This document shows, one piece after another, positions 1,489 to 23,618 of a stretch of DNA of 32,554 nucleotides. Positions within the stretch are counted from its first letter, which is position 1, and each line of letters starts with the position of its first letter. The DNA comes from Spirochaetota bacterium. Lineage in GTDB: Bacteria > Spirochaetota > GWE2-31-10 > JAFGQB01. Where the stretch lies: NCBI GenBank assembly GCA_016935915.1, contig JAFGQB010000116.1, positions 1 through 32,554 on the forward strand, given 5' to 3'. The translations under genes and the position numbers were made by a program. The notes below the pieces were generated by a model that was given only the letters and a program-made list of their open reading frames with translations, was not told the DNA's origin and made no database searches.

Positions 1489-1514
1489 TGATAAGGATAT
1501 TCAATAAATTCATA

Positions 1515-4140: not shown

Positions 4141-4167
4141 GATAATTTTTCCGTTATTTAACTATAT

Positions 4168-4920: not shown

Positions 4921-4941
4921 TCTTTTCTCCTTATTAATTAT

Positions 4942-6627: not shown

Positions 6628-6652
6628 AGTTTCCTCCGATACGGTTTCTTTA

Positions 6653-8419
6653 TCACTCAAATCTTAAAGCATCTACTATGGACATTTTTACTGCTTTTAA
6701 AGCAGGGAAAAAAGCAGTAAATGCGGCAATTATTGTCGCAATAATTGGTGAAGCTATTATTGTGTGAAAATTCCATGCTCCTCTGAAAATACCTACTACT
6801 CTGTAACCGAAATTTTCCATATTAGTTTCTGCAAGTATATTGGTATAGTCGATTCCGTAATAAATGATCCAATAGTCCAATACCAGTCCTAAAATTATTC
6901 CGATAAAGGAACCTATAAAACCTATTAGTCCGGCTTCATATAAGAATAACTTTATTATATCGAAATCCCTCATACCGTTGGCTCTAAGCATTCCTATCTC
7001 TTTGGTTCTTTCAAAAATAGCCATGAGCATTGTATTTGCAATACCCATAATTGCAAGTAAAAATAGTATGCCTATCATGATATTTGTTGTTACTATATCT
7101 CCTGCCGATGCAGCAAGGTAATCTTTTGCAACATCCTGCCAGTTAACCACAGTTAAATTATCAGGAAGTTTATTGCCCAGAATATTTTTAATATATTTTG
7201 CAGTTTCATCCTTGCCCGGCAGGGAGTATTCGCTGAAACCTTTTTTTCTTATGCATATCTCTGTAATTGCTCCTTCAAGCATAATACCTTTATTATCCTG
7301 CAAAATATCCAGCGGTAGATATGCAACATTACCGTTAATGGCTGGATTTGGGGAATTAATAATGCCGGCAACGGTTATATCAATTAATTGATGAATGTGT
7401 TTGATTCTGCCTTTTTCATCCTTTTTATCTATTGTCACAGAGCATCTTACAACATCACCTATTTTTACTTTTAGGTCTTTTGCTCCCCTGACTCCAAGCA
7501 GACAAGCGAAACTTCCATTTTCAATGAAATTGTAATAATCTGCTGATTTTAATGCATCTATAATATTATTCGTATAATCTCTTTCCAAAACCCTTTTTAT
7601 GGATCTGAATTTTAAATTTGCCTTATCAAGCTTTTTTTCATATGACTTAAGCTTATTAATGGAAATAAATTTTTTATAATTGTTTAAAGTATTATTGAAA
7701 TTTTTTATTATATATTTATTTATAAAATCTGGTTTATCATAGTTTTTATCTGTTTTTTTTATCAATCCATTGGTAAGTCCGTTTTCTTTTATATAACTGA
7801 TTTTATTGTTCAATTCTTCAATTTTTAATTTTATGTTTTGTATTTTATCATTCTCATCAGTATTGATGTTTTTATAATAATAAGTATCATTTTTAAAATT
7901 CAATTCATAAGCATTCATCAAATTCTTTTTTAAATTTAAATTGTTGATTTCAGGAAGTATCTTGTTTTCAAATATATATTTTGATAATTTGTAAGGGGGT
8001 TCAGAGTATTTATAGTATTTAAATACTTTTTTTTCCATTTCAGGATCAGCACCTATGAACATAAAAGGAAGTTCTATTTCCGGGCTAAGAAGTGATCCGG
8101 TAAAAACAGCTCTCGGAGCTCCAACATAACCTGCTTCATCAAGAGCTTTTAGGATTTTTTCATAATCATTAAAAGTTTCATACATGGGAAGTTCATCTCT
8201 TTTTTCAAAATATGATTTTGAGTAAATTTTTGAACTTCCGGTTTCATAATTTACAAGATTTCTTTTTGAATCAAGATTCATGCCTAAAAGCCATGAATCC
8301 ATCCAGATATAAATGGAAAGACCGATTGTAATTGCAATGGCTGTAAGTATTGTCTTTACTCTGTGTCTTCCAAGGTTTTTAAAAGCAATTACAAGAAGAT
8401 TTATCTTTTCACCTTTCAT
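6653..8419 (-). CDS. ABC transporter permease, FtsX/MacB-type, with a large periplasmic domain containing a coiled-coil
   Basis: 588 aa. N-terminal TM (ILTAIAITIGLSIYIWM). A ~400-aa periplasmic region contains a heptad coiled-coil (NDKIQNIKLKIEELNNKISYIKENG). C-terminal FtsX module (ILFLLAIMGIANTMLMAIFERTKEIGMLRANGMRDFDIIKLFLYEAGLIGFIGSFIG). AGGAGG RBS. The start overlaps the ATPase stop (ATGA). Confidence 0.8.
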   Translation of the reverse strand: MKGEKINLLVIAFKNLGRHRVKTILTAIAITIGLSIYIWMDSWLLGMNLDSKRNLVNYETGSSKIYSKSYFEKRDELPMYETFNDYEKILKALDEAGYVGAPRAVFTGSLLSPEIELPFMFIGADPEMEKKVFKYYKYSEPPYKLSKYIFENKILPEINNLNLKKNLMNAYELNFKNDTYYYKNINTDENDKIQNIKLKIEELNNKISYIKENGLTNGLIKKTDKNYDKPDFINKYIIKNFNNTLNNYKKFISINKLKSYEKKLDKANLKFRSIKRVLERDYTNNIIDALKSADYYNFIENGSFACLLGVRGAKDLKVKIGDVVRCSVTIDKKDEKGRIKHIHQLIDITVAGIINSPNPAINGNVAYLPLDILQDNKGIMLEGAITEICIRKKGFSEYSLPGKDETAKYIKNILGNKLPDNLTVVNWQDVAKDYLAASAGDIVTTNIMIGILFLLAIMGIANTMLMAIFERTKEIGMLRANGMRDFDIIKLFLYEAGLIGFIGSFIGIILGLVLDYWIIYYGIDYTNILAETNMENFGYRVVGIFRGAWNFHTIIASPIIATIIAAFTAFFPALKAVKMSIVDALRFE

Positions 8420-9102
8420 TTTTTTACATCCTCCTGGATTTTACCATCTCTTAATTTTATTATTCGATTTGCAAAATCCATGACCAGCTTATCGTGAGTT
8501 GAAAATAAAAAGGTTACTTTTTTATCCTGATTTAACTTTTTCATTATTTCAAGAACTTCCGTTGCGGTTATAGAGTCCAGATTTGCCGTAGGTTCATCGG
8601 CAAGGATCAGTTTTGGCGCTTTGATCAGCGCTCTGGCTATTGCAACTCTCTGCTGCTGACCTCCTGACATTTCTGTCGGTCTTCTTTTTTCCATGCTTTC
8701 AAGCCCTACAACTTTTAGAGATTCATAGGATTTTTCTTTTATTTCTTCACTGTTATAACCTAAAAGCGTTAAAGGGAAAGCTACGTTTTCAAATGCAGTC
8801 AAAACAGGTATCAGGTTATATGCCTGAAAAATAAATCCCATTTTTTCTCTTCTAAGGTAAGCAAGTTCATCTTTTTTCATATTCCCAACAGATGTATTAT
8901 CAAATAATACTTCTCCGCTTGTCGGTGTATCCAGACAGCCTATAAGGTGCAGAAGTGTTGACTTACCGCTTCCTGAAGGTCCTACAATTGCGGTAAACTC
9001 GCTTTCATTTATTGTCATATCAATGCCTCTTAGAGCATTTACAGTGATTTTTTTTATCTGATAATCCTTAATCAGTTTTTTTGTTTCAACTATTTTACTC
9101 AT
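8416..9102 (-). CDS. ABC transporter ATP-binding protein (MacB/LolD-type ATPase)
   Basis: Walker A GPSGSGKST, Q-loop, ABC signature MSGGQQQRVAIARAL and Walker B LILADEPTANLD are all present. The start is set at MSKIVETKKL (9102) because AGGAGG lies 5 nt upstream; the ORF-track start at 9126 lacks an RBS. Confidence 0.9.
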   Translation of the reverse strand: MSKIVETKKLIKDYQIKKITVNALRGIDMTINESEFTAIVGPSGSGKSTLLHLIGCLDTPTSGEVLFDNTSVGNMKKDELAYLRREKMGFIFQAYNLIPVLTAFENVAFPLTLLGYNSEEIKEKSYESLKVVGLESMEKRRPTEMSGGQQQRVAIARALIKAPKLILADEPTANLDSITATEVLEIMKKLNQDKKVTFLFSTHDKLVMDFANRIIKLRDGKIQEDVKK

Positions 9103-9160
9103 TTTATCCTCCTGTAATATTTGCATGCATGGAACAGCCGTGCATGTTCCTTACAATTGT

Positions 9161-10249
9161 TTATTTTTTATTTTTTTTACTCTTCTTAACCTCTGATAAA
9201 GCCTGAATACCTGCAAAGTTGCCGAGGTTCATATTGTCAAGTATAGTTGCAGGGACCATCATTGTCGAGTTGCCTGCCTTTAAACCTTCAAATAATATGT
9301 TCATGCTCCTTAATTTTAAGGCGGTATCATTATTTTTATATATTTTTGCCGCTTCTTCGAATTTTTTGGCAAGTTCTATTTCCGATTCTCCAAGCACTAT
9401 TCTTGACTCTTTTTCTCTTTCTGCCTGTGCTTTTTTGCTCATTGTGTCCTGAAGGTGCTGAGGAATGATAATTTCCGTAATGTCAATAGATTGTATGGTT
9501 ATACCCCACTCATTTGTTCTTTTATCAACGATTTTTCTGATCTCTTCTTCGGCTTCCTCTCTTTTTTCCAGAAGTTTTGTCAAGGTTGTTTTCCCGATTG
9601 CATCTCTAAGCGCAGCCTGAGAGCTCAAAACAACGGCATCTGTATAATTTTCAACTTCCAAAATAGCTTTTTCAGGATCCCATATCATCCAGAAAGCCAG
9701 AGCATCTACTGTGACTGCAACAGAATCCTTGGTAAGGGTTGTTTCTGCCACAAAATCAGTTGCACGTATTCTTAAGTCTACTATTTTATTCACAATATCA
9801 GTGAACGGCAATATTAAGAACAAACCAGGACCTTTTATCTTGTTGAATTTCCCGAATCTCAAGATCACTGCTCTTTCCCATTCTTTGGTCTGCTGGAATA
9901 TCGGTGCTAAAAAAACTCCGAAAGATACAGGAACAATGAAATAAAATGAATTGAAACCCTTCCACCAGAAAAAAGCCAATACTCCGATAAAATTTATTTT
10001 TACAATCATTTCCCATTTACCGATCATAATACCCAAAATTCCAAATATAGGGAATAATAGAAAAATTACAAACTCTTCACTGTTCGTTATTCTTTCGCAA
10101 TAATAGAAATATAATATAAATCCAATTGTACTGAAAAAAAGAAATATGAAAGAATTGATCGGATTTATACTGAAATCCTTTTCAAAGAAACTTTTTTTAC
10201 TGATATTCTTTATTAAATAATCTTTTTTTTCCTTAAAAAAATCAAACAT
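9161..10249 (-). CDS. SPFH/Band-7 (stomatin/YqiK-like) protein with an unusual ~110-aa polytopic N-terminal membrane region (about 4 predicted TM helices)
   Basis: 362 aa. Four hydrophobic segments (SFIFLFFSTIGFILYFYY, FVIFLLFPIFGILGIMIG, INFIGVLAFFWW, FYFIVPVSFGVFLAPIF) precede a canonical SPFH core (ERAVILRFGKF...GPGLFLILPF...DLRIRATDF...TKDSVAVTVDALAFW...) and a C-terminal coiled-coil. GGAGGA RBS. The start lies 4 nt after the GntR stop, so the two are co-transcribed. Confidence 0.8.
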   Translation of the reverse strand: MFDFFKEKKDYLIKNISKKSFFEKDFSINPINSFIFLFFSTIGFILYFYYCERITNSEEFVIFLLFPIFGILGIMIGKWEMIVKINFIGVLAFFWWKGFNSFYFIVPVSFGVFLAPIFQQTKEWERAVILRFGKFNKIKGPGLFLILPFTDIVNKIVDLRIRATDFVAETTLTKDSVAVTVDALAFWMIWDPEKAILEVENYTDAVVLSSQAALRDAIGKTTLTKLLEKREEAEEEIRKIVDKRTNEWGITIQSIDITEIIIPQHLQDTMSKKAQAEREKESRIVLGESEIELAKKFEEAAKIYKNNDTALKLRSMNILFEGLKAGNSTMMVPATILDNMNLGNFAGIQALSEVKKSKKNKK

Positions 10250-10252
10250 ATA

Positions 10253-10630
10253 TTATTCCTCCATAAAATTAAAATTTTTAAGTATTCTGATGCAATCTTC
10301 TTTATTAAATCCAATTTCATTCATTTGAATTAAGAATTGTGCGCTGATCTTTTCTGCTTTCTGTATTTTTTCAATAGAACTAATATCGATTTTTTTTTCC
10401 GATATAAAAGTGCCGTATCCTACTTGAGTATTTACAAATCCCCTTATTTCAAGTTCATTATATGCCTTGGCTACTGTATTTGGATTTATTTTTAGGTCCA
10501 CAGCTAATTGTCTTACAGTAGGTAGTTTTTGTCCTGGTTTAAATTTTCCTATGCTCATATTATATTCTACCCATTGAATTATCTGTCTATACACCGGTAT
10601 TCCGCTTTTTGTATCAATCGTTAAAATCAT
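10253..10630 (-). CDS. GntR-family transcriptional regulator, YtrA subfamily (short, wHTH only)
   Basis: 125 aa. GntR wHTH: IPVYRQIIQWVEYNMSIGKFKPGQKLPTVRQLAVDLKINPNTVAKAYNELEIRGFVNTQVGYGTFI. A ~50-aa C-terminal tail with no effector domain is the YtrA subfamily hallmark. It is the first gene of an ABC-transporter operon, as with B. subtilis ytrA. Confidence 0.85.
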   Translation of the reverse strand: MILTIDTKSGIPVYRQIIQWVEYNMSIGKFKPGQKLPTVRQLAVDLKINPNTVAKAYNELEIRGFVNTQVGYGTFISEKKIDISSIEKIQKAEKISAQFLIQMNEIGFNKEDCIRILKNFNFMEE

Positions 10631-10828: not shown

Positions 10829-12436
10829 ATGATTGATATTAAAAGAAGAGTACCAAGATTTGACATTAAGTTCGAATTACTCAGTAATTTACTTAATGGC
10901 AAAGGTATAAATATAAGTCAGACAGGCATAGGATTTTTAACAGAGGAAGAAATTATTCCTGCAGATAATATTCCGTTTGAAACTGAAATAAAAGGCTACA
11001 TTTTCAGTGATAAAATTTACAAAATTAAAGGAACAGGAAATTTATTGTATTCGAAAAAACTTATAGGTCAGAATGAATTATACAGGAACGGATTAAAATT
11101 CGTAAATATGGATGATGATTCGAAAGAGGCGTTATTCAATCTTTTAAATGATATCAGACTATTTAAAAGTGATATAAAAGATGAGAATACCATCATGACA
11201 CTTGCCGATTTTTACTATTATCCCTCAGATGATTTATTTGCCAAGACCAGTATTTTCAGTGAATATATTGATAAGAATTTCCTGATAAATCATAAAATGT
11301 TTTCTTATTATCTTGATTCATCATGCAGTGCTGTAGGCAATATGATCAACAGAAAAACAAAAGACAAAAAAGAGATGATAATGTTGGGGTCAAATAATTA
11401 TCTGGGACTTGCGACTCATCCCGAGGTTATAAAAGCAGGCATTGAAGCACTAAAAAAATATGGCGCTGGAAACGGCGCTGGTGCAATGGTTGGAGGAACT
11501 TTAGGCATACATAAACAGCTTGAAGAGGAGCTGGCTGATTTTATCGGAAAAGAAGAGGCAATGATATTTAATTCGGGATATTCTGCCAACATAGGAATAT
11601 TATCAGGAATATTAAGACCTAATGATGTGGTAATTAATGATCAATATAATCATGCGAGTATTTTTGACGGATGTCGTTTGAGTCAGTCAAAATTACTGGT
11701 TTTTAAACATAATGATATTAACAGTCTTGAAAAAATCGTTAAAAGAGCAAAATATTATTTTAACGGATGTATAATAGTTATTGATGGTATTTACAGTACA
11801 GACGGAAGTCTTTCTCCTCTGGATGAAATATACAGGATTGCCAGAACTTATGACTGCAAAATAATGGTCGATGAAGCCCATGCTCTAGGCATATTAGGTA
11901 AAAAAGGAAGGGGAACAACTGAATATTTTAATTTAACAGATAAAATTGATATTATCATGGGAACCTTAAGCAAATCTTTAGGATCTTCAGGAGGATTTGT
12001 AGCATCAAGTAAAAATGTTATAGAATATTTAAGATTTTATGCAAGGTCATATTTATTTTCAACAAGTTTTCCCCCTTCAGTTGCCGCAACTGTTTTAAAA
12101 GCATTGCATCTTATTAAAACTGACAACAGTATAAGAGAAAAACTTCATTTCAATATTAGTTATTTTATTAATGGATTAAAAAAGCTTAATTTGGATATAG
12201 GTGAACCAAAATCGGCAGTTGTACCTATTTTTATTTCTGATCAAAAATTACTTTTTAAGATTTCATCTTTATTATTTGATAATGGATTATTTCATAATGT
12301 CATGATATATCCTGCTGTACCTATGGGCGGATCATTGTTAAGATTCGGAATTACAACATCTTTAGATGAAAATATTTTAAAAAAAGCTCTTGTAATAATA
12401 GAAAAAGTTTTAAAAGAAGTCGGATTTTTAAAGTAA
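10829..12436 (+). CDS. Serine palmitoyltransferase-like alpha-oxoamine synthase (PLP-dependent, class II aminotransferase) with an N-terminal PilZ-like domain
   Basis: 535 aa. The C-terminal ~350 aa are an AONS/Spt core: LGSNNYLGLATHPEVIKAGIEALKKYGAGNGA, DEAHALGILGKKGRGT, and the PLP-lysine block GTLSKSLGSSGGFVASS (compare Sphingomonas Spt GTFSKSLASLGGFVAG). The N-terminal ~110 aa carry both PilZ signature motifs in the canonical order and spacing: RRVPR (RxxxR) at aa 6-10 and NISQTG ([D/N]xSxxG) at aa 28-33. Confidence 0.8.
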   Translation: MIDIKRRVPRFDIKFELLSNLLNGKGINISQTGIGFLTEEEIIPADNIPFETEIKGYIFSDKIYKIKGTGNLLYSKKLIGQNELYRNGLKFVNMDDDSKEALFNLLNDIRLFKSDIKDENTIMTLADFYYYPSDDLFAKTSIFSEYIDKNFLINHKMFSYYLDSSCSAVGNMINRKTKDKKEMIMLGSNNYLGLATHPEVIKAGIEALKKYGAGNGAGAMVGGTLGIHKQLEEELADFIGKEEAMIFNSGYSANIGILSGILRPNDVVINDQYNHASIFDGCRLSQSKLLVFKHNDINSLEKIVKRAKYYFNGCIIVIDGIYSTDGSLSPLDEIYRIARTYDCKIMVDEAHALGILGKKGRGTTEYFNLTDKIDIIMGTLSKSLGSSGGFVASSKNVIEYLRFYARSYLFSTSFPPSVAATVLKALHLIKTDNSIREKLHFNISYFINGLKKLNLDIGEPKSAVVPIFISDQKLLFKISSLLFDNGLFHNVMIYPAVPMGGSLLRFGITTSLDENILKKALVIIEKVLKEVGFLK

Positions 12437-12545
12437 GTAATTATCCATATGAATTATTTTTTTATAAGAAAAAGAAATAGATTATTATTTTAATAAATAA
12501 ATATTTCTTAACAATAAAATTTAAATTGATGCATGATAAAACAAG

Positions 12546-13991
12546 ATGGATATTATAGATTTTTTAGAAAAGAATTTATGCCGTTATTCTGACAAGAGAG
12601 CATTGGTTGATGTTGATAATAATATTTGTTTAACTTATAAAAATTTATATGATAATATTTTATATTATGCAGATTATTTAAAAAAAAGCGGCATAAGGGA
12701 AAATCAGAAAGTCGGTTTATACCTTAATAATTCTATCATACATATAATTTTATTATATAGCTTGTTATATTTAAAAGCAGTACCGGTTCTAATTGATTCA
12801 AGAAACACATTAAGGGAAATAAAAGAATGTCTGATAAGTTCAGATACAAAGGTAATAATTTATGAAAATGCTAACTTTGAAATAAATGAATTATACAGTA
12901 CAGCAGATAAGATTTTTGTCATAAAAGAAAGTATAGAAGATTTTAATATCAAAGATAATAAAATAAGCTGTATAATAAAAAATTTCAATAATGATTATAA
13001 TAATAAAAAATTAAAAAAGAGTAAAAAATTAACTTACTTTATACTTTTTACCTATCGAGGAACAGGACAAGTTCTGCCTGTTATACTTTCAGAAAGCGCA
13101 ATAATAAACAGTCTATTCAGTAATTTTTATTTGAATAAAAATATTAAAGATATTATTTTATTGTTGATTTTACCGATTCATCATATTTTTGCATTAACAT
13201 GCAATTTACTTAGCCCTTTATCGCTTGGAGTAACAATAATATTGACCAATAAAATACAGCCTTATAAAATTTTAAATATTATTGAAGAATATAGGATTAC
13301 TTATTTAATATTAGTACCGACTTTAGTTTATGTCCTTTTAAATTCAATAAAAAAAAATAAATATAATCTTATGAGCTTAAGAAACGGAATTGTAGGCGGA
13401 AACAAATTTCAGAATGATCTTTATAAAGATTGGCATGAAGCATTAAATTGTATCCTGCTGCAGGGATACGGCTTGACAGAAACATGTCCTGTAATCTGTA
13501 ATCAATGGAATAACAATAAACCAGGTTCAATCGGGAAATTAATGAAAGGTGTAAAAGCCAGATTAATTGATAAAAATGGTAATTATAATGATAAGGAAGG
13601 TGTTTTATGGATCAAATCTAAAATGATATTATCTAAATATTTAAATAATGAAAAAGAAAATAAAGAATATATTGATAATGGATGGTTTAATACAGGCGAT
13701 ATTATTGCAAAAGATAGTGATGATTTTTATTATTTTATAAAAACAATTAAAAACATTGCAAAAGTAGGAGGATCAACAGTAGATTTAAAAGAAGTTAAAA
13801 CTATTATTCAAAAGTTTAATTTTGTACATTCCTGTTTGTTATCAGTAGAACATGATAAATTATGGAATGATAAGATAATTTGTCATTTAACTTTAAGGGA
13901 AAATATAGATAAAGTTGATATATATAATTATTTTAAATCTGTTTTAGCATCATTTAAACTGCCCGGTAATATTATTATTAATTCAATTTAA
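12546..13991 (+). CDS. ANL-superfamily adenylate-forming enzyme (acyl-ACP synthetase / fatty-acyl-AMP ligase-like), with degenerate motifs
   Basis: 481 aa. Clear ANL motifs are YGLTET (A5, YGxTE) and GWFNTGD (A7, GWxxTGD), with the hinge region IAKVGGSTVDLKEV. However, the P-loop A3 reads TYRGTGQVLPV instead of TSGTTGxPKG (no Lys), and the C-terminus ends ...FKLPGNIIINSI where A10 PKTxSGK is expected (no catalytic Lys). Confidence 0.65.
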   Translation: MDIIDFLEKNLCRYSDKRALVDVDNNICLTYKNLYDNILYYADYLKKSGIRENQKVGLYLNNSIIHIILLYSLLYLKAVPVLIDSRNTLREIKECLISSDTKVIIYENANFEINELYSTADKIFVIKESIEDFNIKDNKISCIIKNFNNDYNNKKLKKSKKLTYFILFTYRGTGQVLPVILSESAIINSLFSNFYLNKNIKDIILLLILPIHHIFALTCNLLSPLSLGVTIILTNKIQPYKILNIIEEYRITYLILVPTLVYVLLNSIKKNKYNLMSLRNGIVGGNKFQNDLYKDWHEALNCILLQGYGLTETCPVICNQWNNNKPGSIGKLMKGVKARLIDKNGNYNDKEGVLWIKSKMILSKYLNNEKENKEYIDNGWFNTGDIIAKDSDDFYYFIKTIKNIAKVGGSTVDLKEVKTIIQKFNFVHSCLLSVEHDKLWNDKIICHLTLRENIDKVDIYNYFKSVLASFKLPGNIIINSI

Positions 13992-14018
13992 CATTAATTA
14001 ATAAATAATTGACATGAC

Positions 14019-14047
14019 AATAATTAAGTAATAGAATTTAATTAGAT
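14019..14047 (+). promoter_or_regulatory. Near-consensus sigma-70 promoter: TTGACA-N17-TAGAAT
   Basis: ttgaca, then a 17-nt spacer (tgacaataattaagtaa), then tagaat. Read directly in the 247-nt intergenic region between the ANL gene and the 444-aa ORF. It would give a leader of about 185 nt before the 14239 ATG. Confidence 0.45.
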
Positions 14048-14238
14048 TTAGGAGATTAATAATTAATATAATTAATTTATATAATGACATCAAAAAAAAT
14101 TATGTAATTAAATATCCATCTTTTAAAAAAAACATAGAAAAGTCTGGTTTTTTAGAATATTTTTTTATTGAAAAAAGAAAAATATTTGCGTGGAATAAAA
14201 CGGTAAATTTACTGGATTTTACTTTTTTCAAGTTTACA

Positions 14239-15573
14239 ATGAGATTATCAAAAAATTTTAAAAAAAAATTTGATGATATTTTTTTATATAATGTTTATCC
14301 AGCCGGTAAATTTTTGAAAGATATAATAAAGAACGGATGGAAATCAGGGGTTTTATCAATAAAAGAATATAATATAATCGTTCAATTTTCTGACTTATAT
14401 AATAAAATGTCAGCTGTAAATAAAAAGCCTGTATTAATCTATAATGATTTTATCAAATTTGAAGATTCTTTTTATAAAGTTATCAGCAATGATATTTATC
14501 TTAAAAATTTATTGGAAGGATTAAATAAAATATTTACATATTATAAGGAAAGTTTTTTTAATAATAATGAAAAAATAATTAAACAGCTTATAAATTTATT
14601 AGAATCTTTTTTTAGTTTCAATTTTATAATGCCTTCAATCTATGATATTATTTTAGCTTTTAATATTATTAATGCCAGAAGATTTTTAAACTGGGATGAA
14701 CTTTATGAAAAAACAAAAGAAGATTTTATACAATCAAATTTTTTTGACTGTTCGGTTGAAGTATTTGAACAAATTGTAAAATCTATTAAAAGTTCATTGT
14801 CAGAAATTGAAATTATTGAAAAGGATATTGCCAGGATAGAATGGCTTAAAAATTATTCATCATTATCAAATAACACTAACCCTGATAAAATAATTTGTTT
14901 TTATATAGAGATTTTAAAAAAAGATTGGCATAAAGATTCAGATGATCTTTTTCTTTTATTATTGTCGTTATTTAACGGAATAATTGAAAAGATGAATGAA
15001 CTATTAAGTAAAGATTTTGTATTGATGAATGAAAAAGAAGAGTTGATTAAGAAAAGGATTTTCAGTAATATGGAACTTGAAGAGCTTTTTAATAATTTGA
15101 AAGAACAATATACATCTGCAAAAGACAGGCACTTATCAGTTACTCCTTCTAAAATACCGTTAGAATTTTATATAAGTCAGATAAATCCGGAATTTATATT
15201 TACTGATATAAATCAGAAATTTATTTTTGAAAAGATATATAATGTATTTTATTTTTTAAGACAAATGGCATTTAAATTATATTATATCATAAATGATGAA
15301 AAAGAACTTAATAAAATGAATTTTATTAAATTTATGATTGTTAAACCTGAAGAATGGAAAGGTAAAATATTAATATCTTTAATTAATTTTTATATTGAAC
15401 TTTTTTTACAGATATGCGGATATTTTAAAGAAAAAAATTTAATATTAGAATTAAATAAATTAAATAAATTGATTTTGGATAGAGATAAATCTTTAAAAAA
15501 AATTGAAATGATTTCAGACAGTAATAAAATTATTGAAAGATTTTTAAAAAATGATAAAATAATTTTATTATGA
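14239..15573 (+). CDS. Hypothetical protein (444 aa, predicted all-alpha, no recognisable motifs), translationally coupled to the downstream receiver-domain gene
   Basis: Long ORF in an otherwise densely coding region. It is Lys/Ile/Phe/Glu-rich. Its stop overlaps the next gene's start (ATGA at 15570-15573). No catalytic or binding motif was recognised by eye. Confidence 0.5.
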   Translation: MRLSKNFKKKFDDIFLYNVYPAGKFLKDIIKNGWKSGVLSIKEYNIIVQFSDLYNKMSAVNKKPVLIYNDFIKFEDSFYKVISNDIYLKNLLEGLNKIFTYYKESFFNNNEKIIKQLINLLESFFSFNFIMPSIYDIILAFNIINARRFLNWDELYEKTKEDFIQSNFFDCSVEVFEQIVKSIKSSLSEIEIIEKDIARIEWLKNYSSLSNNTNPDKIICFYIEILKKDWHKDSDDLFLLLLSLFNGIIEKMNELLSKDFVLMNEKEELIKKRIFSNMELEELFNNLKEQYTSAKDRHLSVTPSKIPLEFYISQINPEFIFTDINQKFIFEKIYNVFYFLRQMAFKLYYIINDEKELNKMNFIKFMIVKPEEWKGKILISLINFYIELFLQICGYFKEKNLILELNKLNKLILDRDKSLKKIEMISDSNKIIERFLKNDKIILL

Positions 15574-16055
15574 TAGAAAATAAAGAAAATAATGGATTCA
15601 GCAAAAATAATGAAGTTATTGATGATGCAGTAGTTGCTCAGGAAGAAAATCTAGAAGAAGTTAAAGATGATAATTTAAAATTTGCAGGAAAAATTGTTTT
15701 AGTTGTTGATGATATATTATATGTGGTAAAGTCAATATCAAAAATTTTAAGGGATGAAGGCTTTTTTGTTTTAACTGCACAAACGGGTCTTGACGCTATT
15801 AAAAAAGTTGAGCAATATTCGCCTGATTTAGTTACAATAGATCAGAAACTTCCTGATATGATGGGTACAAAATTAGTGGAAGAAATAAGAAAAATAGAGA
15901 CAGGAAAAAAGACAAAGATTATATTTATATCTGCACTTTATGATAAAGATAAAATAAAATCGATACTTCATCTTGGTGTTGATAATTATTTATTAAAACC
16001 TTTTAAGAAATCTGTTCTGGTAAATACAATTAAAAAGATTTTTAATGAAGAATAA
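15570..16055 (+). CDS. Single-domain response regulator (CheY-like receiver) with a ~40-aa acidic N-terminal extension
   Basis: Receiver signatures: KIVLVVDD (acidic pocket), phospho-acceptor Asp in LVTIDQKLPDM, T/S in IFISA, and the conserved Lys in LLKPF. There is no output domain. Confidence 0.8.
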   Translation: MIENKENNGFSKNNEVIDDAVVAQEENLEEVKDDNLKFAGKIVLVVDDILYVVKSISKILRDEGFFVLTAQTGLDAIKKVEQYSPDLVTIDQKLPDMMGTKLVEEIRKIETGKKTKIIFISALYDKDKIKSILHLGVDNYLLKPFKKSVLVNTIKKIFNEE

Positions 16056-16058
16056 TAA

Positions 16059-17210
16059 TCAATTTTTAAATGGATGTCTGTATTTTAATTTAGTTTTTGG
16101 TAATACTAAATTTTTAAAGATTTTTAAGAAAAAATGAATTATTTTATTATTATGAAATAAATAAATATAATTTGAAATAATGACGCCGCCTAATTTTATT
16201 TTAAATTCATAAGTTGTAACTCCAAGCTCAAGGTTTTTAAATTTATTTTCAATGGCAAATTTCAATCCCTGGTAAAATATATTGAAATAAATGTTATATT
16301 TTTCTTTTTTTTTATAGTCCATGCCAACATATAATAATCTAGCAGTGAAATCATCAAGAACAATAAATGCAAATCCCAGAATATGATTGTTTTTTTTTAA
16401 CAACAAAACCAATGATTTTTTATATAGATATTTGTTCATACTTTTGAAAAAATTTTCAGTTAAAATTTCTCTTCTGTATTCTTTGGCATGCTCATAGCAA
16501 TTTAAGTATAATTTTAATAATTCTGGAATTATTTCGGAATAATTATAGCAATATTCTATTTTTAAATTACTTTGATTTATAATGTTATTGCATTTTTTAA
16601 CAAATCTTCTGTAATTATAACGCAAATCATTTATATAATCATTAAAATTCTTCCATTTTATTTTTATTTCTACATTAGGCATGTTACTTGCCTCTATAAA
16701 TTTAAAACTTTTTATTTCATTGGATATTTTATAATCTTTTTTATAAAAGTCTCTGATCGCCAATAAGTTTGCATTGTTTTCTTTTGCTATTTTTTTCATT
16801 TCATTTATAATCAATTCAATGATTTTTAATCTGCTGTATTCTTTTTGAGTATTTATTGCAAAAGTATTGCCCAGAGATATGGGAGAACCGCATTCGGTTA
16901 ATTTTATAATACAAAAATTCGGGATAATCTTTCTAGTGAATTTTATGATTTTCAGGAAAAATCCTTTTAAGAAAATAAATAAATCTACACTTATTGTATA
17001 AACGCATGCATGTCCAACAATTTGATTTGCATTGTTATAAACCACGAGATAATAAAATTTACAGTCATTGATTTTGCTTTCTTCAACAGCTTTTAAAAAA
17101 TCAAATTTATTTATTATATTATCGCTTTCTACTATTGAATCCCAGCTCTTTTTATCTATTTCATTGATATTTTTAAAAATTTTTATTTGATACATAAAAA
17201 AATATTCCAA
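16059..17210 (-). CDS. GNAT-fold acyltransferase of the BioF2-like / FemAB-like (DUF482-type) family
   Basis: 383 aa. The N-terminal signature KSWDSIVES...FDFLKAVEESKINDCKFYYLVVY matches the characteristic W...F(L)..FL.A.EES... opening of PF04339/PF13480 proteins. The size (~380 aa) and the presence of two GNAT-like halves are consistent with that family. Confidence 0.5.
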   Translation of the reverse strand: MEYFFMYQIKIFKNINEIDKKSWDSIVESDNIINKFDFLKAVEESKINDCKFYYLVVYNNANQIVGHACVYTISVDLFIFLKGFFLKIIKFTRKIIPNFCIIKLTECGSPISLGNTFAINTQKEYSRLKIIELIINEMKKIAKENNANLLAIRDFYKKDYKISNEIKSFKFIEASNMPNVEIKIKWKNFNDYINDLRYNYRRFVKKCNNIINQSNLKIEYCYNYSEIIPELLKLYLNCYEHAKEYRREILTENFFKSMNKYLYKKSLVLLLKKNNHILGFAFIVLDDFTARLLYVGMDYKKKEKYNIYFNIFYQGLKFAIENKFKNLELGVTTYEFKIKLGGVIISNYIYLFHNNKIIHFFLKIFKNLVLPKTKLKYRHPFKN

Positions 17211-17447
17211 AATGATTAAATTTATAGTATAATAATATTCAAAGAAATTAAATATTATTTTAAAAAGTAAAAAAATTTTGCTGTTTTTTTAAAATTTCTA
17301 TTTTGTATTATATCAAAACAGCAAGGATCGCTGGTTTTATTATTGCTGAGTTAAACAAACGGTCATTTTTTTTACGATTTTTATAGATAAAATCAACATT
17401 GATTTTAAATTTATTTTAATTTAATAAAAAGATTTCTGGAAATTATT

Positions 17448-17681
17448 ATGATTAAAAAAGAAGTTATTGATATAATAAGTACCGTTACAAGAATTGATAA
17501 GGAAAAGATAAAAGATAATTCTTCTTTGAGAGATGATCTTTTTGTTGATTCACTTCAGGCTGTTCAAATTGTAAATCTGATTCAGGATAAATATAATATA
17601 AAAATCGATGAAATAGAAATATTTAATGTTGATAATCTTACAGATATTGTTGCTATAGTTAATGAATATTTAGAGAAATAA
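17448..17681 (+). CDS. Acyl carrier protein
   Basis: 77 aa with the phosphopantetheine attachment motif LRDDLFVDSLQAVQIV (DSL serine), acidic helix II and ACP-typical length. Confidence 0.85.
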   Translation: MIKKEVIDIISTVTRIDKEKIKDNSSLRDDLFVDSLQAVQIVNLIQDKYNIKIDEIEIFNVDNLTDIVAIVNEYLEK

Positions 17682-17727
17682 CATTTTTATTAATATTATC
17701 ATATTGATTAAAGTAATTTCATAAAAT

Positions 17728-19392
17728 TTATAGTTCGGGAATTAAAATTTCATTTATAAATTTTTCATCCGGAATGCTATCAGGAAAACCCATTGTTTTT
17801 GCAATTTTATTTAGTGTAACTTTTATTTGATCAATGCTTTTTTTTTCCATTAGCTGAACAGTCAGAATATTTCTGAATTTAAATATTTCTTTTAATGTAT
17901 CCTTATTGAATCTTCTGTTGAAATAAACACTTTCATCATTATAGTGATATGATTTATTAATATTTTTAAATATATAGTAAGAATACTTAATACTTTTTTT
18001 ATAATCCATGGTTTTATGCTTCCATTTTTTAAACATACCATTTAATTCCCATTTTTTCCTTATTTCCGACAGAGATAGGTAGCTTAATGGAAGAACTATT
18101 AATGGATAAAGCTGAACAGAAGGGGAGGATTGTGCGATTTCAAGCTTATTGATAAATTGAATTGTATTTTCTATTGTTTTGTTGTTTTCACCGGGGTATC
18201 CGATCAGAAACGTCATTAAAACTGTAATACCGAATTTATCCAATAATTCAATACCCTTTTTTATATCATGTAAATCCTGTTTTTTATTCATTCGATTCAA
18301 TTGTCCTTTATCGCCGGATTCGACGCCAATATACGAATAAAAAAGACCGGAATTTTTAATGTTTTTTATATTATTTTCAGTTATGGATGATGCTCTCATG
18401 AAACCTGCCCAGGCTGTTACTTTACATTCAATAAATGTATCAGTGATTTCATCTATTCTTTTTTTATTAAAAAACACGTTGTCATCAACAACATGAATCA
18501 AAGGCATTATGTTTTTTTTTCTTGATACATTATTTATCAGATTCAGCTCTTTTTTTATGCTTTTTTTTGATCTTAAGAATAATTTTGGATAGAGATAGCA
18601 AAAATTGCAATATCCGCATTTATATGGACAACCTATTGAAGTTCTGATAGGAATTCTATCAGGTATTTCATCCAGTAATTCCCAATTGGTAAAATCTTCA
18701 TTATAATTGATATTTTCAGTAATGAATTTATTAATTATAAAATCTCCTTTTTCATTTGGTATCGCTATATTATAAAAACTGCTAAAATCCCTTTTGCTTT
18801 TATCCAGTTCGATTAATAGATTTAAAAGAATATTTAAGCCATGCTGGGAAATAATTAAAAAATCCAATTTTATATCTTTATAATTCAGAGGAAATAGGGA
18901 ATAATTTTGATCAATTTTATAATTTAAGTTGTTGTATTTTAATATTGAATTATAATGATTGTTCCATAAAAAACTGTTATAGATAAAAATACCTCCGGCT
19001 ATTATATATGTTTCCGGAAATTTTTCTTTAAGTAAGTTCACTGTATTCTTTAGAGTTTCTCTTTTAAATATCATTGTAGTAGAAATGCAGATAGCAAAAG
19101 GATTTATTTTAATTATTTTTTCTATTGTATATTCAGAAAGATTATTTATTAAAATTGCATTATAGCCTTTTTCTTTTAATTTACTCGTTAAATAATAGCC
19201 TGATGCCGGCATGGTAACAGTAGAATAATTTTTAATTTTTCTTAATTCATTTAAATTATATTTGAATTTAATTATTTCATAAAGGTTTTGTAATGTAAGT
19301 TCTCTTTCATCTGATTTTAATTTTAATATAAGATCAAGATCATTATTTTTATCTATTGTTATTGGTGCAAATATAATTATGGTTTTTTTCAT
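17728..19392 (-). CDS. B12-binding-domain radical SAM protein (class B rSAM)
   Basis: 554 aa. Radical-SAM cysteine triad CPYKCGYCNF (CxxxCxxC) at about aa 255. It is preceded by a ~240-aa N-terminal region with a Rossmann-like cobalamin-binding-domain pattern (IIIFAPIT..., TMPASGYYLTSKLKEKGYNAILINN). The long C-terminal extension is typical of class B methyltransferase-like rSAMs. Confidence 0.7.
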   Translation of the reverse strand: MKKTIIIFAPITIDKNNDLDLILKLKSDERELTLQNLYEIIKFKYNLNELRKIKNYSTVTMPASGYYLTSKLKEKGYNAILINNLSEYTIEKIIKINPFAICISTTMIFKRETLKNTVNLLKEKFPETYIIAGGIFIYNSFLWNNHYNSILKYNNLNYKIDQNYSLFPLNYKDIKLDFLIISQHGLNILLNLLIELDKSKRDFSSFYNIAIPNEKGDFIINKFITENINYNEDFTNWELLDEIPDRIPIRTSIGCPYKCGYCNFCYLYPKLFLRSKKSIKKELNLINNVSRKKNIMPLIHVVDDNVFFNKKRIDEITDTFIECKVTAWAGFMRASSITENNIKNIKNSGLFYSYIGVESGDKGQLNRMNKKQDLHDIKKGIELLDKFGITVLMTFLIGYPGENNKTIENTIQFINKLEIAQSSPSVQLYPLIVLPLSYLSLSEIRKKWELNGMFKKWKHKTMDYKKSIKYSYYIFKNINKSYHYNDESVYFNRRFNKDTLKEIFKFRNILTVQLMEKKSIDQIKVTLNKIAKTMGFPDSIPDEKFINEILIPEL

Positions 19393-19559
19393 AATTTATT
19401 TCTTATTTATCTTATATTATAATTAATTTTTTTAAAATAATAAATATTTATTAAATATTATATTAATGGAAAATAAAAATTTGAAATTATTTAAAATATT
19501 TACTATATTATATTATATAAATTATTTTTTTCATTACAAAGATAATATATTTTTTTAAT

Positions 19560-22061
19560 ATGCAAAAAAATGAGAATAAGATTTCTATAAAAAGTTCAAT
19601 GAAATTCAATGAATTTGAAGCTAAAAAACAGGAATTAAATTGCGGCGTCAATATTATTCCTGTTATTAGGTTTTTAGAAAAAAATTTCGGGATGAATAAA
19701 ACAATAAATATTGTTGAATCTCTCGGATTGCCTTTAAGTTTTTTATCTAATAAGCGAAATTGGGTATCGTATAGCTATTATTCTTCATTGCTTGACAAGC
19801 TGGTAGAGGTAACAGAAGATAAAAGAGCTCCTTTTAAGATTGCCTCTGTTTTACGTCCTGAGTCAATTTTCGATGATATAATGTATGCAGGATATGCTTC
19901 AATATTTTTCAGTAATCCTAAAATTATGTATAAGTCAATAATCAGTAAAAATATATATAAGACTTATCAGAAAATCGGGGATTTTAATCTTTTAAATGAA
20001 ACAAAGAATTCTATTTCATTTGAATATATTTTAAAGAATAACTATAAACATAAAAATAATAATTGTATTGCTATTGAGGGGTATTTATCATTTGGAGCCT
20101 TAATATGCGGGTATCCGCCTGCCTCTACTTCCTATCAGATAACTTCGGACAACAGATGTATATTCACTGTATCATGGGAAAAGAAGTCCAAATTATTTGA
20201 AATTGTTTTTTTTACATTATTTTCAATAGTTTTTGTTTCAGAAATTCTTCTATATAAGAAAATATTTTTGTTAAAAGATATAATGTTAAGCACCTTTATT
20301 TTTTTTGCAATATATTTTTTTGTAAAAAACATGCAATTTAAGAAAAAAATCACTCATGAAGAAATTTTTAATTTTGACCGAAATAATTCAATTTTAAATG
20401 CATTATCGAAGATTGAAAAGGATTATAATGATTTACTTGAAAAAGAAATAAAAATAATGGAAAGAAATACATATTTGACTATTATGAGTGAGGCTAGGAA
20501 ATTGATTTATTATGCATTATACTTCACTCCTGTTCTTTTTAATATTACAAAACTGCTACTGGATAATTTAAATTTCGTTAAATGCGTATATTTTGAATTC
20601 AGTTTGAAAAAAAGGTCTTATGAATACCTGTTTGATTTAAATAATGAAAAAATAGTAACAGAGGATATAAAAGCTGTAAGTTTTATTAATTTTATTATGT
20701 CCGGTGAAATAATTGAATATATTCAAAAAAGTAATAATTATATGAATATTGAAACCAATGATTTAAAAAAATATATTATAGATAAACCGATAAATTTTAA
20801 TTTAGATTTATTCAATAAATATTACGCTAATATTCTGTTCATAGATATGCCTTCAACATACAGCGGCTTTTTTTTATTTTTTTCCTTAAAAAAAAGCAAT
20901 TTCAGCCGAGAAATCATAAAGATGTTATTTGAAGATATTTCTGATCAGTTAAAAATTTGTTATGAAAATATTTCAACAAGGTACACTATTGAAAATATTT
21001 TATCTAGCATACCAAGTTATGTAATTATTTTCAATACTGAAGATTATACGATAAAATTTATTAATAATTTATTTTTAACATCATTCCCGTTGATAGAGAA
21101 AAAGATAGATAAGCTTGATGTAATCGGCAAGAAATTATTTACTGTTTTACATTTTAATCAGGATGTCATTGATAATATTCAAAATTATATAAATGAAATT
21201 ACTATTAATAATATTGAGGATTTAAAATCTGAAGTTTATGAAACCATGATTAATAATTTTGTTTTTGAATACAGTTTATTCAGAATACCCAGATTTAAAA
21301 ACCAGGAAAAATTATTAGGGCTAATAATGAATGATATTACTGAAGCAAAATATTTTCAGAAAAATATTATTGTAAATGAGAAATTATTGGCATTAGGTAA
21401 GGTCGCTAGCGGCATAGCACATGAAATAAATAATCCACTTTATGCTGTTTTAGCCAGTGCAGAAGAAATATCAGAAAATGAAAGCATAGACAATGAGACA
21501 AGAGATTATGCGGAAGAAATAATTAATCATGTTATTAGTGTTTCAAATATTATTAAAGATTTATCTTCATTTTCAAAGACTTTAAGAAAAGAAGAAACTT
21601 ATGAAGTTGATCTTAATAATGTTATAGAGGAGTCATTAAAATTGGTTAAATACAGCTCGAATTATCTTGAAATAAATATCATTAAAAATTTAGGTGAAAT
21701 ACCTTTAATTAAAACGACTAAAGGTGAGATGCAGCAGGTATTTATTAATATATTTAATAATGCAGTACAGGCAATGAATGGAAGAGGTACGTTAAATGTT
21801 GAGACAAAAAATAAAAGCAATAGGATTATAATTGTAATTAAAGATACGGGATCAGGGATATCAAAAGAGAATTTACCTTTTATTTTTGATTTGTATTTTA
21901 CTACAAAAAATCTTGAAGAAGGTTCTGGTCAGGGATTACATATTGTTAAAAAAATAATTACAAAATACAATGGGGATATAAAAGTCACAAGTAAAATCGG
22001 TAAAGGCTCGGTTTTTCATATAACATTTTATTTGGATAGAATGGGAGTATTTAATGAATAA
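19560..22061 (+). CDS. Sensor histidine kinase with an unrecognised ~200-aa N-terminal cytoplasmic domain, two TM helices and a C-terminal HisKA + HATPase_c
   Basis: 833 aa. H-box LALGKVASGIAHEINNPLYAV. N-box FINIFNNAVQAM. G1 IKDTGSGIS. G2 GSGQGLHIVKKII. TM pair around aa 210-260 (IVFFTLFSIVFVSEILLY / LSTFIFFAIYFFV). The N-terminal 200 aa match no domain recognised by eye. Confidence 0.85.
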   Translation: MQKNENKISIKSSMKFNEFEAKKQELNCGVNIIPVIRFLEKNFGMNKTINIVESLGLPLSFLSNKRNWVSYSYYSSLLDKLVEVTEDKRAPFKIASVLRPESIFDDIMYAGYASIFFSNPKIMYKSIISKNIYKTYQKIGDFNLLNETKNSISFEYILKNNYKHKNNNCIAIEGYLSFGALICGYPPASTSYQITSDNRCIFTVSWEKKSKLFEIVFFTLFSIVFVSEILLYKKIFLLKDIMLSTFIFFAIYFFVKNMQFKKKITHEEIFNFDRNNSILNALSKIEKDYNDLLEKEIKIMERNTYLTIMSEARKLIYYALYFTPVLFNITKLLLDNLNFVKCVYFEFSLKKRSYEYLFDLNNEKIVTEDIKAVSFINFIMSGEIIEYIQKSNNYMNIETNDLKKYIIDKPINFNLDLFNKYYANILFIDMPSTYSGFFLFFSLKKSNFSREIIKMLFEDISDQLKICYENISTRYTIENILSSIPSYVIIFNTEDYTIKFINNLFLTSFPLIEKKIDKLDVIGKKLFTVLHFNQDVIDNIQNYINEITINNIEDLKSEVYETMINNFVFEYSLFRIPRFKNQEKLLGLIMNDITEAKYFQKNIIVNEKLLALGKVASGIAHEINNPLYAVLASAEEISENESIDNETRDYAEEIINHVISVSNIIKDLSSFSKTLRKEETYEVDLNNVIEESLKLVKYSSNYLEINIIKNLGEIPLIKTTKGEMQQVFINIFNNAVQAMNGRGTLNVETKNKSNRIIIVIKDTGSGISKENLPFIFDLYFTTKNLEEGSGQGLHIVKKIITKYNGDIKVTSKIGKGSVFHITFYLDRMGVFNE

Positions 22062-22425
22062 TTTATTTAAAAGTATATTGGTCATTGATGATGATCAGTT
22101 AATATTAAAAAGTATAAAAAAACAGCTTAAAGATGAGAATTTTGATGTTGATTTTATTGATGATCCTTTGGAAGGGATGAAAATGATCGACAATAAAAAA
22201 TATGATTTGATATTAAGCGATATTAAGATGAAGCCAATCTTGGGAATAGAAGTACTTGAAAAGGTTAAAAAAAGATATCCTCATTTGCCTATAATAATAA
22301 TAACCGGATATGTTGATGATAAACTAATGAAAAAAGCTAAGGAATTAGGCTGCAATGATTATTTAATTAAACCAATTAGAAAGAATGATCTTATTAATTC
22401 TTTAAATAATATTTTAAATAATTAG
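22054..22425 (+). CDS. Single-domain response regulator (CheY-like), translationally coupled to the kinase
   Basis: 123 aa. ILVIDDD, phospho-acceptor Asp in LILSDIKM, T in IIIITG, K in YLIKP. The start overlaps the kinase stop by 8 nt. Confidence 0.85.
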   Translation: MNNLFKSILVIDDDQLILKSIKKQLKDENFDVDFIDDPLEGMKMIDNKKYDLILSDIKMKPILGIEVLEKVKKRYPHLPIIIITGYVDDKLMKKAKELGCNDYLIKPIRKNDLINSLNNILNN

Positions 22426-22488
22426 CTTTCCGATTATTTTTTAGTTATAAATATAGACAAAAAATTATTTATTAATCAGAAATGTTTT

Positions 22489-23274: not shown

Positions 23275-23294
23275 AAATATAATAAATCATTATA

Positions 23295-23618
23295 TTAAAT
23301 TTTAAATCTATCTGTTTTAGCATTTATGATTTTTTTAATAAAAATTATTTGTTCTGGATTTATATCGTTAAATTTTACCCCAGTTTTAAAATTTTTTGAA
23401 TTCATAACTTCACAATTTAATATTATTTCTTCAGAATTTAATATAATTTTTAATTGAATTATTTCATTATTTTGGAAATTATGATTTGTATTTAAACCAG
23501 CTCCATCTAAATTTATATCAATTACATAACATTGTTCCCAATTTTCATGATAAAAATATGATCCCTCAATATTTATAAGAAATCTAGGTTTTTTACGTTG
23601 TGCTTCTGTAAATGACAT
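23295..23618 (-). CDS. Stand-alone PilZ-domain protein (putative c-di-GMP receptor)
   Basis: 107 aa. RKKPR (RxxxR) at aa 8-12 and DINLDGAG (D/N-x-[S/N]-x-x-G-like) about 22 aa downstream. The N-terminal pattern QRKKPRFLINIE parallels KRRVPRFDIKFE in the PilZ-like domain of the Spt-like protein at 10829. The third motif position is N rather than the canonical S. Confidence 0.45.
   Translation of the reverse strand: MSFTEAQRKKPRFLINIEGSYFYHENWEQCYVIDINLDGAGLNTNHNFQNNEIIQLKIILNSEEIILNCEVMNSKNFKTGVKFNDINPEQIIFIKKIINAKTDRFKI

Follow-up and report, generated by a model that had tools for sequence, protein, structure and literature searches.

Bacterial sphingolipid synthesis has been worked out only recently, and the enzymes known to be controlled by PilZ domains are mostly polysaccharide synthases, together with motility proteins. 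In the Caulobacter-type ceramide locus, which comprises Spt, AcpR, AasR, bCerS and CerR, synthesis proceeds from an acyl chain on an acyl carrier protein (acyl-ACP) to an amino-ketone and then to its N-acylation (PMC11324152, PMC11087976). Here we describe a gene cluster that is likely to follow the same order of steps. It occupies positions 10829 to ~23274 of a 32.5-kb contig (JAFGQB010000116.1, 32,554 nucleotides, hereafter the window) from the metagenome-assembled genome (MAG) of a 'Spirochaetes bacterium' and, as in Caulobacter, sets an alpha-oxoamine synthase (AONS) beside a dedicated ACP and an ANL-superfamily ligase and includes an N-transferase. The two loci nevertheless differ: (i) the window AONS falls in no known Spt family, the transferase is a PF04339 Fem-like protein and not YghO-like, and the ligase is a short ANL enzyme without the A10 lysine and not a fatty acyl-AMP ligase (FAAL); (ii) the window carries no CerR-type short-chain dehydrogenase/reductase (SDR), no LptF/G paralogues and no ceramide kinase; and (iii) it adds a PilZ domain, a histidine kinase, two receivers, a protein without family match, a B12-type radical SAM enzyme and a ferredoxin. 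Our reading, to which we give a probability of about 0.5, is that the locus encodes a conserved pathway, controlled by cyclic di-GMP (c-di-GMP) and by a phosphorelay, to an N-substituted, possibly methylated long-chain alpha-amino-ketone, that is, a keto-sphingoid-like aminolipid. The enzyme classes involved are all known; what would be new is their assembly from partly non-homologous parts and their proposed direct control by a second messenger and a phosphorelay.

The first gene of the cluster (10829–12436, plus strand) encodes a 535-residue protein in which a PilZ domain (residues ~1–107) and a conserved linker (~108–150) are followed by a pyridoxal phosphate (PLP)-dependent AONS (~150–535). 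Scanned alone, the PilZ domain scores 23.0 bits on PF07238, where the cut-off is 22.5, and within the full-length protein it scores 19.6 bits, just under that cut-off. It carries RRVPR (RxxxR) at residues 6–10 and NISQTG (NxSxxG) at residues 28–33. RxxxR and [D/N]xSxxG, which together define the PilZ domains that bind c-di-GMP (bioRxiv 10.1101/814665), are kept with correct spacing in nearly all of ~45 PilZ-AONS proteins. Judged on them, the N-terminus of the window AONS is a PilZ domain with intact binding motifs, and it would be expected to bind the second messenger. By sequence, the rest of the protein belongs to the AONS family (PLP fold type I): it matches Pfam Aminotran_1_2 (E 7e-48), all the AONS-family models match it at E <1e-70, and its catalytic residues, aligned to the reference Spt sequences, are intact (Lys382 in GTLSK, His275 in NHAS, Asp348 and His351 in VDEAH, and Arg505). 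No published fusion of a PilZ domain to an AONS or an Spt was found in the literature on PilZ with AONSs or sphingolipids. PilZ-gated biosynthesis is known from the cellulose synthase BcsA and from alginate Alg44: as there, a canonical PilZ domain sits on the enzyme that commits the pathway, an analogy that suggests allosteric activation by c-di-GMP, whereas the window enzyme is a soluble PLP-dependent acyltransferase that forms a C–C bond and not a membrane glycosyltransferase for exopolysaccharide.

The gene set is a real cluster, and its arrangement is not due to chance, because the same order is found on independent contigs from other samples. The genes for the PilZ-AONS, the ANL ligase, (the protein without family match), a receiver, the Fem-like transferase (on the opposite strand), the ACP, the B12-type radical SAM enzyme, the histidine kinase, a second receiver and the ferredoxin recur, at 45–63% protein identity, in L003, in L044, in L001 together with L017, and in the fragment L013. 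The first-pass annotation of this DNA, which saw in it a ceramide-like cluster of seven genes at 10829–19392, had named co-occurrence in related genomes as a check, and the genes do co-occur; all seven were found at the coordinates it gave, but its 3' boundary did not hold, since the conserved unit continues past 19392 through the kinase, the second receiver (REC2) and the EFR1 ferredoxin to ~23274. The kinase, REC2 and the ferredoxin had been overlooked, as had the PilZ domain and the general association of these AONSs with two-component systems. The position of the cluster, beside housekeeping genes, is fixed in related genomes, and one locus (that of P0014) retains only the AONS and ANL genes. 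Every carrier found is an uncultured MAG, and the lineage seems to be absent from the species-representative genomes, because a profile search of their contigs with the Fem-like alignment found no relative.

A second group of PilZ-AONS proteins bears on what happens to the AONS product. In MAGs of Candidatus Dadabacteria/Thermodesulfobacteriota (L025–L039 and L004–L006) we have identified fusions of ~919 residues that join PilZ, AONS and a YghO-like GNAT domain, of which no published description was found in the literature. Their PilZ domain and linker align colinearly with the N-terminus of the window AONS (E 4e-7), and their last 370 residues match E. coli YghO (E 3e-36) and a Roseomonas GNAT (E 4e-25) from end to end. 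These two proteins served as our stand-in for bCerS, defined as the GNAT of 380–385 residues (YghO in E. coli) that lies near LptF/G paralogues in both reference loci, which were taken from a plasmid collection (Roseomonas mucosa p1-HV1, L011, and the E. coli yghO region, L012); the Caulobacter bCerS, CCNA_01212, adjoins LptG2 and LptF2 (one preprint). YghO and the Roseomonas GNAT are 46% identical, and an orthologue is also found in an Ignavibacteriales trio of genes (L040). Because the Dadabacteria polypeptide joins the AONS to a bCerS-like module, its architecture gives strong evidence that in the PilZ-AONS family the AONS product would be N-acylated next. The fusions share with the window the homologous PilZ-linker-AONS unit, the c-di-GMP motifs and the histidine kinases that follow the gene; they differ from it in the fused bCerS-like transferase, in an SDR gene ~1.6 kb upstream, and in the absence of the ANL ligase, the ACP, the Fem-like protein, the radical SAM enzyme and the protein without family match. 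Downstream of the fusion gene come those of a GAF histidine kinase and a hybrid REC-HK-REC kinase, then two small open reading frames (ORFs), and the SDR and chorismate synthase genes lie 5' of it. In a neighbour-joining (NJ) tree the two AONS groups each form a well-supported clade (bootstrap 98 for the spirochaetes and 99 for the fusions), and the tree gives no clear sister relation between them. The spirochaete cluster thus appears, from its gene content, to reach the same logic with a non-homologous transferase and with its own ACP and ligase.

In the pathway that we propose, the ANL enzyme would activate a carboxylic (fatty) acid and load it onto the dedicated ACP, and the AONS would join this acyl-ACP to an amino acid by condensation, forming a 2-amino-3-keto compound. 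The Fem-like tandem GNAT would then cap the free amine with an acyl group, or with an aminoacyl group from an aminoacyl-tRNA, and the B12-type radical SAM enzyme, drawing electrons from the EFR1 ferredoxin, would methylate or otherwise tailor the chain; as the cluster has no reductase, the product may retain its 3-keto group. On the side of control, c-di-GMP on the AONS-fused PilZ domain would gate the committed step, the conservation of the motifs being observed and binding predicted from it, and the phosphorelay (a kinase with a membrane hairpin, two receivers and, in most relatives, the helical protein without family match) would provide a second control layer or a sensor of the product.

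The enzyme classes that this scheme calls for are present. The ANL ligase (12546–13991, plus strand, 481 residues; AMP-binding, E 8e-56) has as its best NCBIfam match a CoA-ligase subfamily (208 bits, cut-off 476), and it presumably charges the ACP of the cluster with a carboxylic acid. The ACP (17448–17681, plus strand, 77 residues; PP-binding, E 7e-13) scores 49.1 bits on PF00550, where the cut-off is 20.8, has its phosphopantetheine serine in a DSL motif at residue 35, as expected of the dedicated ACP that had been annotated here, and is 52% identical to its counterpart in L003. Convergent with the ACP gene is that of the B12-binding-type radical SAM enzyme (17728–19392, minus strand, 554 residues; Radical_SAM, E 2e-15, 57.8 bits, cut-off 29.5), which carries CPYKCGYC (CxxxCxxC) at residue 255 and a weak B12-binding domain (24.6 bits, under the cut-off of 32.1); its closest NCBIfam model is the PhpK family (195 bits, cut-off 600), and it is presumed to be a C-methylase or another radical tailoring enzyme. 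The EFR1-family ferredoxin (22489–23274, minus strand), with a flavodoxin-like domain and two [4Fe-4S] clusters (NF038196, 142.5 bits, cut-off 75), has a homologue in the same place in L003 and L044 and is the likely electron donor of the radical SAM enzyme.

The transferase is encoded on the minus strand at 16059–17210 (383 residues, likely start ATG 17195) and matches PF04339 with 71.9 bits (E 7e-20, cut-off 27), as do all its 16 homologues, one of which also matches PF02388 FemAB. Its AlphaFold2 (AF2) model (pLDDT 88.5) has two GNAT lobes, and in a Foldseek search of the PDB the best matches were FemX and FemA, followed by VipF, N-myristoyltransferase, the aminoacyl-tRNA peptide synthases Sbb17/Sba18 and MprF-type/aminoacyl-phosphatidylglycerol synthases (E 2e-13 to 1e-9, TM 0.5–0.58, sequence identity 8–13%). 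The protein shares its fold and the FemAB_like Pfam family with FemX/FemA/FemB, MprF and N-myristoyltransferase, and differs from them in having no peptidoglycan or phospholipid context. On this model it is plausibly an N-transferase, acylating or aminoacylating the AONS product. The "BioF2/FemAB-like GNAT" of the first-pass annotation therefore stands as a FemAB_like tandem GNAT, with no detectable relation to the YghO-like GNATs of sphingolipid loci. Fem-like proteins also occur in other settings: in other Spirochaetales, P0137 and P0138 (L007, 2810–4303) combine a Fem-like PF04339 domain with a C-terminal PilZ domain (RYFER, NISESG) and no AONS adjoins them, and a further relative, P0136 (L008), adjoins a hybrid kinase. 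This second kind of PilZ fusion, like the stand-alone PilZ genes and the GGDEF cyclase in the neighbourhood, speaks for the c-di-GMP control that we propose.

A stronger form of our proposal, which we hold only tentatively, is that c-di-GMP directly gates the committed step of sphingolipid-type synthesis in at least two uncultured lineages, Spirochaetota and Candidatus Dadabacteria, through the AONS-fused PilZ domain, and that the spirochaete product is a methylated N-(amino)acyl keto-sphingoid, a new lipid class made with the help of the Fem-like transferase and the B12-type radical SAM enzyme. If true, the production of a membrane lipid or lipid signal would be coupled to the motile–sessile switch and to a dedicated phosphorelay, PilZ-AONS would add a new type to the known effectors of c-di-GMP, and this would be a first direct link of this second messenger to sphingolipid-like chemistry; the papers on bacterial sphingolipid synthesis that we consulted gave no account of its post-translational regulation. 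Searches by homology to Spt, bCerS and CerR would miss such producers, because the logic of acyl-ACP, AONS and N-transfer would have been rebuilt from non-homologous parts.

Several points weigh against the proposed aminolipid pathway. No product is known, no organism is in culture, and the sequence does not tell which amino acid the AONS would use. The modelled fold of the Fem-like protein fits aminoacyl-tRNA donors equally well, and the YghO-like GNATs are taken as bCerS from synteny and one preprint, not from a direct comparison with CCNA_01212. The ANL orthologues (in the window, L001, L003, L013 and L044) all stop just past a K(L/I)P motif, and so have no A10 catalytic lysine, and all share a non-canonical P-loop, FTYRGTGxxLPV, so that, as far as these motifs tell, the loading step may not work as proposed. 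Some parts are not obligatory, because the radical SAM enzyme is swapped in relatives and the protein without family match is absent from L044, the closest relative. The substitute, a different B12-type radical SAM enzyme (23% identity), occupies the same slot on the opposite strand (L003, 14297–15628; L044, 15323–16639; L017, 6935–9621, where it is a tandem duplicate). Finally, a variant locus (L015, 8267–12000, identical to L016) has the order hybrid PAS-HK-REC-REC kinase, Hpt, PilZ-AONS, the protein without family match, receiver and ACP; in its AONS the PLP lysine (K to E), the Asp and His of DEAH and the His of HAS are gone and the PilZ motifs intact, its ACP has lost the serine, and the ANL, Fem-like and radical SAM genes are absent. 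Such a dead-looking PilZ-AONS and ACP suggest, as judged from these residues, either a non-enzymatic signalling role or a decaying locus.

The first alternative is that the cluster is a true sphingolipid pathway, in which the AONS would be an Spt, the Fem-like protein an analogous but non-homologous ceramide synthase and the reductase encoded elsewhere, with a (dihydro)ceramide as the product. We consider it unlikely, although the top matches of the AONS are of this kind: its best model is SptCFB (381 bits) and its best PDB match the S. multivorum Spt (288 bits, 41% identity), with the Thermus BioF/KBL little behind, and the sister PilZ-AONS clade, if sister it is, is fused to a bCerS-like module. 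Membership of Spt was judged on the cut-offs of NCBIfam NF047599, NF047600 and NF047603, and the window AONS passed none of the Spt equivalog models (380.8 bits against 640, 348.8 against 500 and 283.8 against 670), whereas the control Spts of Roseomonas (613) and of the E. coli locus (600) were above the cut-off of 500. Nor does it prefer Spt, since SptCFB (381 bits, cut-off 640) is followed closely by the BioF/Kbl-related model (372, cut-off 535), KBL (370, cut-off 460) and BioF (362, cut-off 426), none of which it passed either. The AONS of the Ignavibacteriales locus, by comparison, shows a clear Spt preference, with 479 bits on SptCFB against 365. That enzyme also stays under the SptCFB cut-off of 640, and because it belongs to a canonical trio, failing the cut-off does not exclude Spt activity. 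The trio itself (L040, 4773–8293, an Ignavibacteriales MAG) consists of divergent SDR, AONS and bCerS-like genes, and the NCBI cut-offs evidently miss likely Spts outside the clades on which they were trained.

In the NJ analysis with bootstraps (52 sequences, 390 columns) the spirochaete PilZ-AONS proteins form a clade of their own (bootstrap 98). It is nested in no Spt clade and is separate from KBL (100), from proteobacterial Spt (100), from BioF and from the Thermus type, with deep nodes below 50, and the window enzyme is 41% identical to the S. multivorum Spt, 39% to the Thermus BioF/KBL and 33% to the Roseomonas Spt. The Spt-like label that the AONS had been given is not supported by the scores, and in the phylogeny by which it was to be judged the enzyme joins neither Spt nor KBL/BioF at any supported node.

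The partner enzymes also speak against a true sphingolipid pathway. Between the Fem-like protein and the Roseomonas GNAT there was no BLASTP alignment at E<=100, and hhalign of the Fem-like protein with YghO, the Roseomonas GNAT and 14 fusion C-termini gave a probability of 0.6% (E 0.1), that is, no detectable relation, so that the bCerS-type GNAT of the first-pass annotation does not stand against this stand-in. Its ACP-ligase-like ANL does not stand as a ceramide-locus synthetase of the FAAL/AasR type either: the window ligase, besides having no A10 lysine, is 20–23% identical to the two FAALs of the reference sphingolipid loci, over 78–227 residues only, whereas the Roseomonas FAAL scores 807 bits on NF006624 (cut-off 600). 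As had been noted before, a CerR-type reductase is missing: a scan of 40 ORFs, among them all those of >111 aa in the window, gave no SDR/epimerase Pfam match, and an SDR is present in the reference, Dadabacteria and Ignavibacteriales loci. According to published surveys, however, the genes for Spt, bCerS and CerR may lie apart from one another (PMC11334938). The B12-type radical SAM enzyme, for its part, has no role in known ceramide synthesis. Altogether, of the ceramide-like pathway first proposed, the acyl-ACP, AONS and N-acyl-transfer logic fits the enzyme classes, but the identities of Spt, bCerS, FAAL and CerR are not borne out. As regards the reference loci, the E. coli one (L012, 7450–15229, the PN43 record) comprises the YghO GNAT, a FAAL, an SDR, an ACP, an Spt-scoring AONS that is annotated only as a generic aminotransferase, and LptG/F paralogues; it corresponds to the sphingolipid-type locus mentioned for strain UTI89 (2026 preprint).

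A second alternative concerns the signalling genes. CqsA and LqsA are AONS enzymes whose genes lie beside those of their sensor kinases, and the window likewise sets an AONS-family synthase beside a sensor kinase and receivers, as in CqsA/CqsS and LqsA/LqsR/LqsS. The AONS might then make a diffusible amino- or hydroxy-ketone autoinducer, which the kinase and receivers would sense and relay. The kinase (19560–22061, plus strand, 833 residues; HisKA, HATPase_c) has a 210-residue N-terminal domain without family match, a two-helix membrane hairpin (~212–253, from the hydropathy profile), a PAS-like region, HisKA with the H-box HEINNP at residue 621, and HATPase; its orthologue in L003 is full-length (720 bits), and it occupies the same position in L044 and L017. 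REC1 (15570–16055, plus strand, 161 residues with an acidic N-terminal extension; Response_reg, E 2e-24), a stand-alone receiver, keeps the DD, D, S and K receiver residues and is present in every related locus that is long enough. REC2 (22054–22425, plus strand, 123 residues; Response_reg, E 1e-28), also stand-alone, overlaps the 3' end of the kinase gene, has its receiver residues intact and follows the kinase in L003 and L044.

In favour of such a signal system, the PilZ-AONS adjoins histidine kinases in every lineage examined: a kinase with two receivers in the main spirochaete group, a hybrid kinase with Hpt in L015, and a GAF kinase with a hybrid kinase in all of the at least 15 Dadabacteria loci. 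Because the Dadabacteria fusions always precede two histidine kinases, the two-component link is, on gene order, a trait of the PilZ-AONS family. In addition, the kinase hairpin leaves hardly any loop in the periplasm, a feature of kinases that sense the membrane or lipids. However, receptors of the CqsS/LqsS type have six transmembrane helices and the window kinase has two; the AONS does not pass the autoinducer-synthase model NF005526 (244 bits, cut-off 428), and of the bacterial AONS structures that it matches in the PDB those of CqsA score lowest (144 bits). The PilZ domain on the synthase is a further difference, and a dedicated ACP, a ligase, an N-transferase and a radical SAM enzyme exceed what the known autoinducer synthases need. 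An autoinducer system is on these grounds improbable.

A third alternative is that the product is not a membrane lipid but a secondary metabolite resembling a lipo-amino acid or lipopeptide, in which the Fem-like protein would transfer an amino acid from an aminoacyl-tRNA, with the amino-ketone or some other amine as acceptor, and the radical SAM enzyme would tailor the result. B12-type radical SAM tailoring enzymes are indeed common in natural-product clusters, and the top fold matches of the transferase are aminoacyl-tRNA-dependent (FemX, FemA, Sbb17/Sba18 and the MprF/aminoacyl-phosphatidylglycerol synthases), with PF02388 found in one homologue; yet the tandem GNATs that use acyl-CoA (N-myristoyltransferase, VipF) match nearly as well, and at TM values of only 0.5–0.6. 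The cluster also has no exporter, peptidase, non-ribosomal peptide synthetase or polyketide synthase, and in relatives its chromosomal position beside housekeeping genes is fixed, all of which makes a secondary metabolite quite unlikely. Lastly, that these genes share a MAG contig by chance or through chimeric assembly could be suspected from their spread over both strands and at least four transcription units and from the GC content of 23.8% in the cluster region (10829–23618) as compared with 32.2% in the upstream flank (1–10630), but it is hardly credible, being contradicted by the order and orientation kept on independent contigs from different samples and by the domain fusions that tie AONS, PilZ and transferases together.

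The protein without family match is encoded between the ANL ligase and REC1 (14062–15573, plus strand) in the GC minimum of the cluster region (19.6%). It has no Pfam, NCBIfam or PDB sequence match. Its stop overlaps the start of REC1 by ATGA, which points to translational coupling and agrees with the coupling to a receiver noted earlier. The length of 444 residues given then was too short: the conserved N-terminal 60 residues lie in frame 5' of ATG 14239, the first ATG, back to ~14059–14062, and the protein has ~500 residues (~503 if it starts at ATT 14062), the typical length of its family. The NCBI annotation, with 419 residues, starts further downstream still. In 14059–14238 no ATG, GTG or TTG is available, only ATA or ATT at ~14059–14062; from the alignment, translation probably starts at ATT 14062 or ATA 14059, and AGGAG (14050–14054) stands before these candidates. 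Further upstream lies a sigma-70-like promoter match, TTGACA-17-TAGAAT (14009–14037, plus strand), with 11 of 12 consensus positions; it is among the three best promoter matches in the region, but it rests on the consensus only and the DNA here is very rich in AT. A search for the family gave 173 representatives at E<=1e-3 and 40 at E<=1e-30, and its distant relatives of 580–650 residues are likewise without a Pfam domain. The protein is predicted to be all-helical, the AF2 model from four homologues (pLDDT 43) being too poor for a fold search.

Beyond the ferredoxin, and in its operon, a gene for a stand-alone PilZ protein (23295–23618, minus strand, 107 residues; PilZ, E 5e-13) is possibly associated with the cluster, its membership being uncertain; it is not similar to the PilZ domain of the AONS, and other stand-alone PilZ genes adjoin the AONS gene of L001 and lie close to that of the P0014 locus. 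The window contains no riboswitch, no other Rfam family and no tRNA. An iron alcohol dehydrogenase (24239–25390) was considered as the missing reductase and rejected, because in L015 its orthologue is part of a conserved FolD-RsmI-FlgM-FeADH block of housekeeping genes, to which the cluster is simply adjacent. Upstream, a minus-strand block (4168–10630) diverges from the cluster and encodes a LolA-like protein, two MacB/FtsX-type permeases, an ABC ATPase, an SPFH/Band-7 protein and a small GntR regulator; its LolA-like/MacB-like ABC system (4168–9126) was rejected as a lipid exporter, as it does not lie beside the cluster in L001, L003 or L044. On the other side, 4 kb 3' of the cluster and beside the RsmI-FlgM-FeADH block, a HAMP-GGDEF diguanylate cyclase (26719–27618, plus strand) is a possible local source of c-di-GMP.

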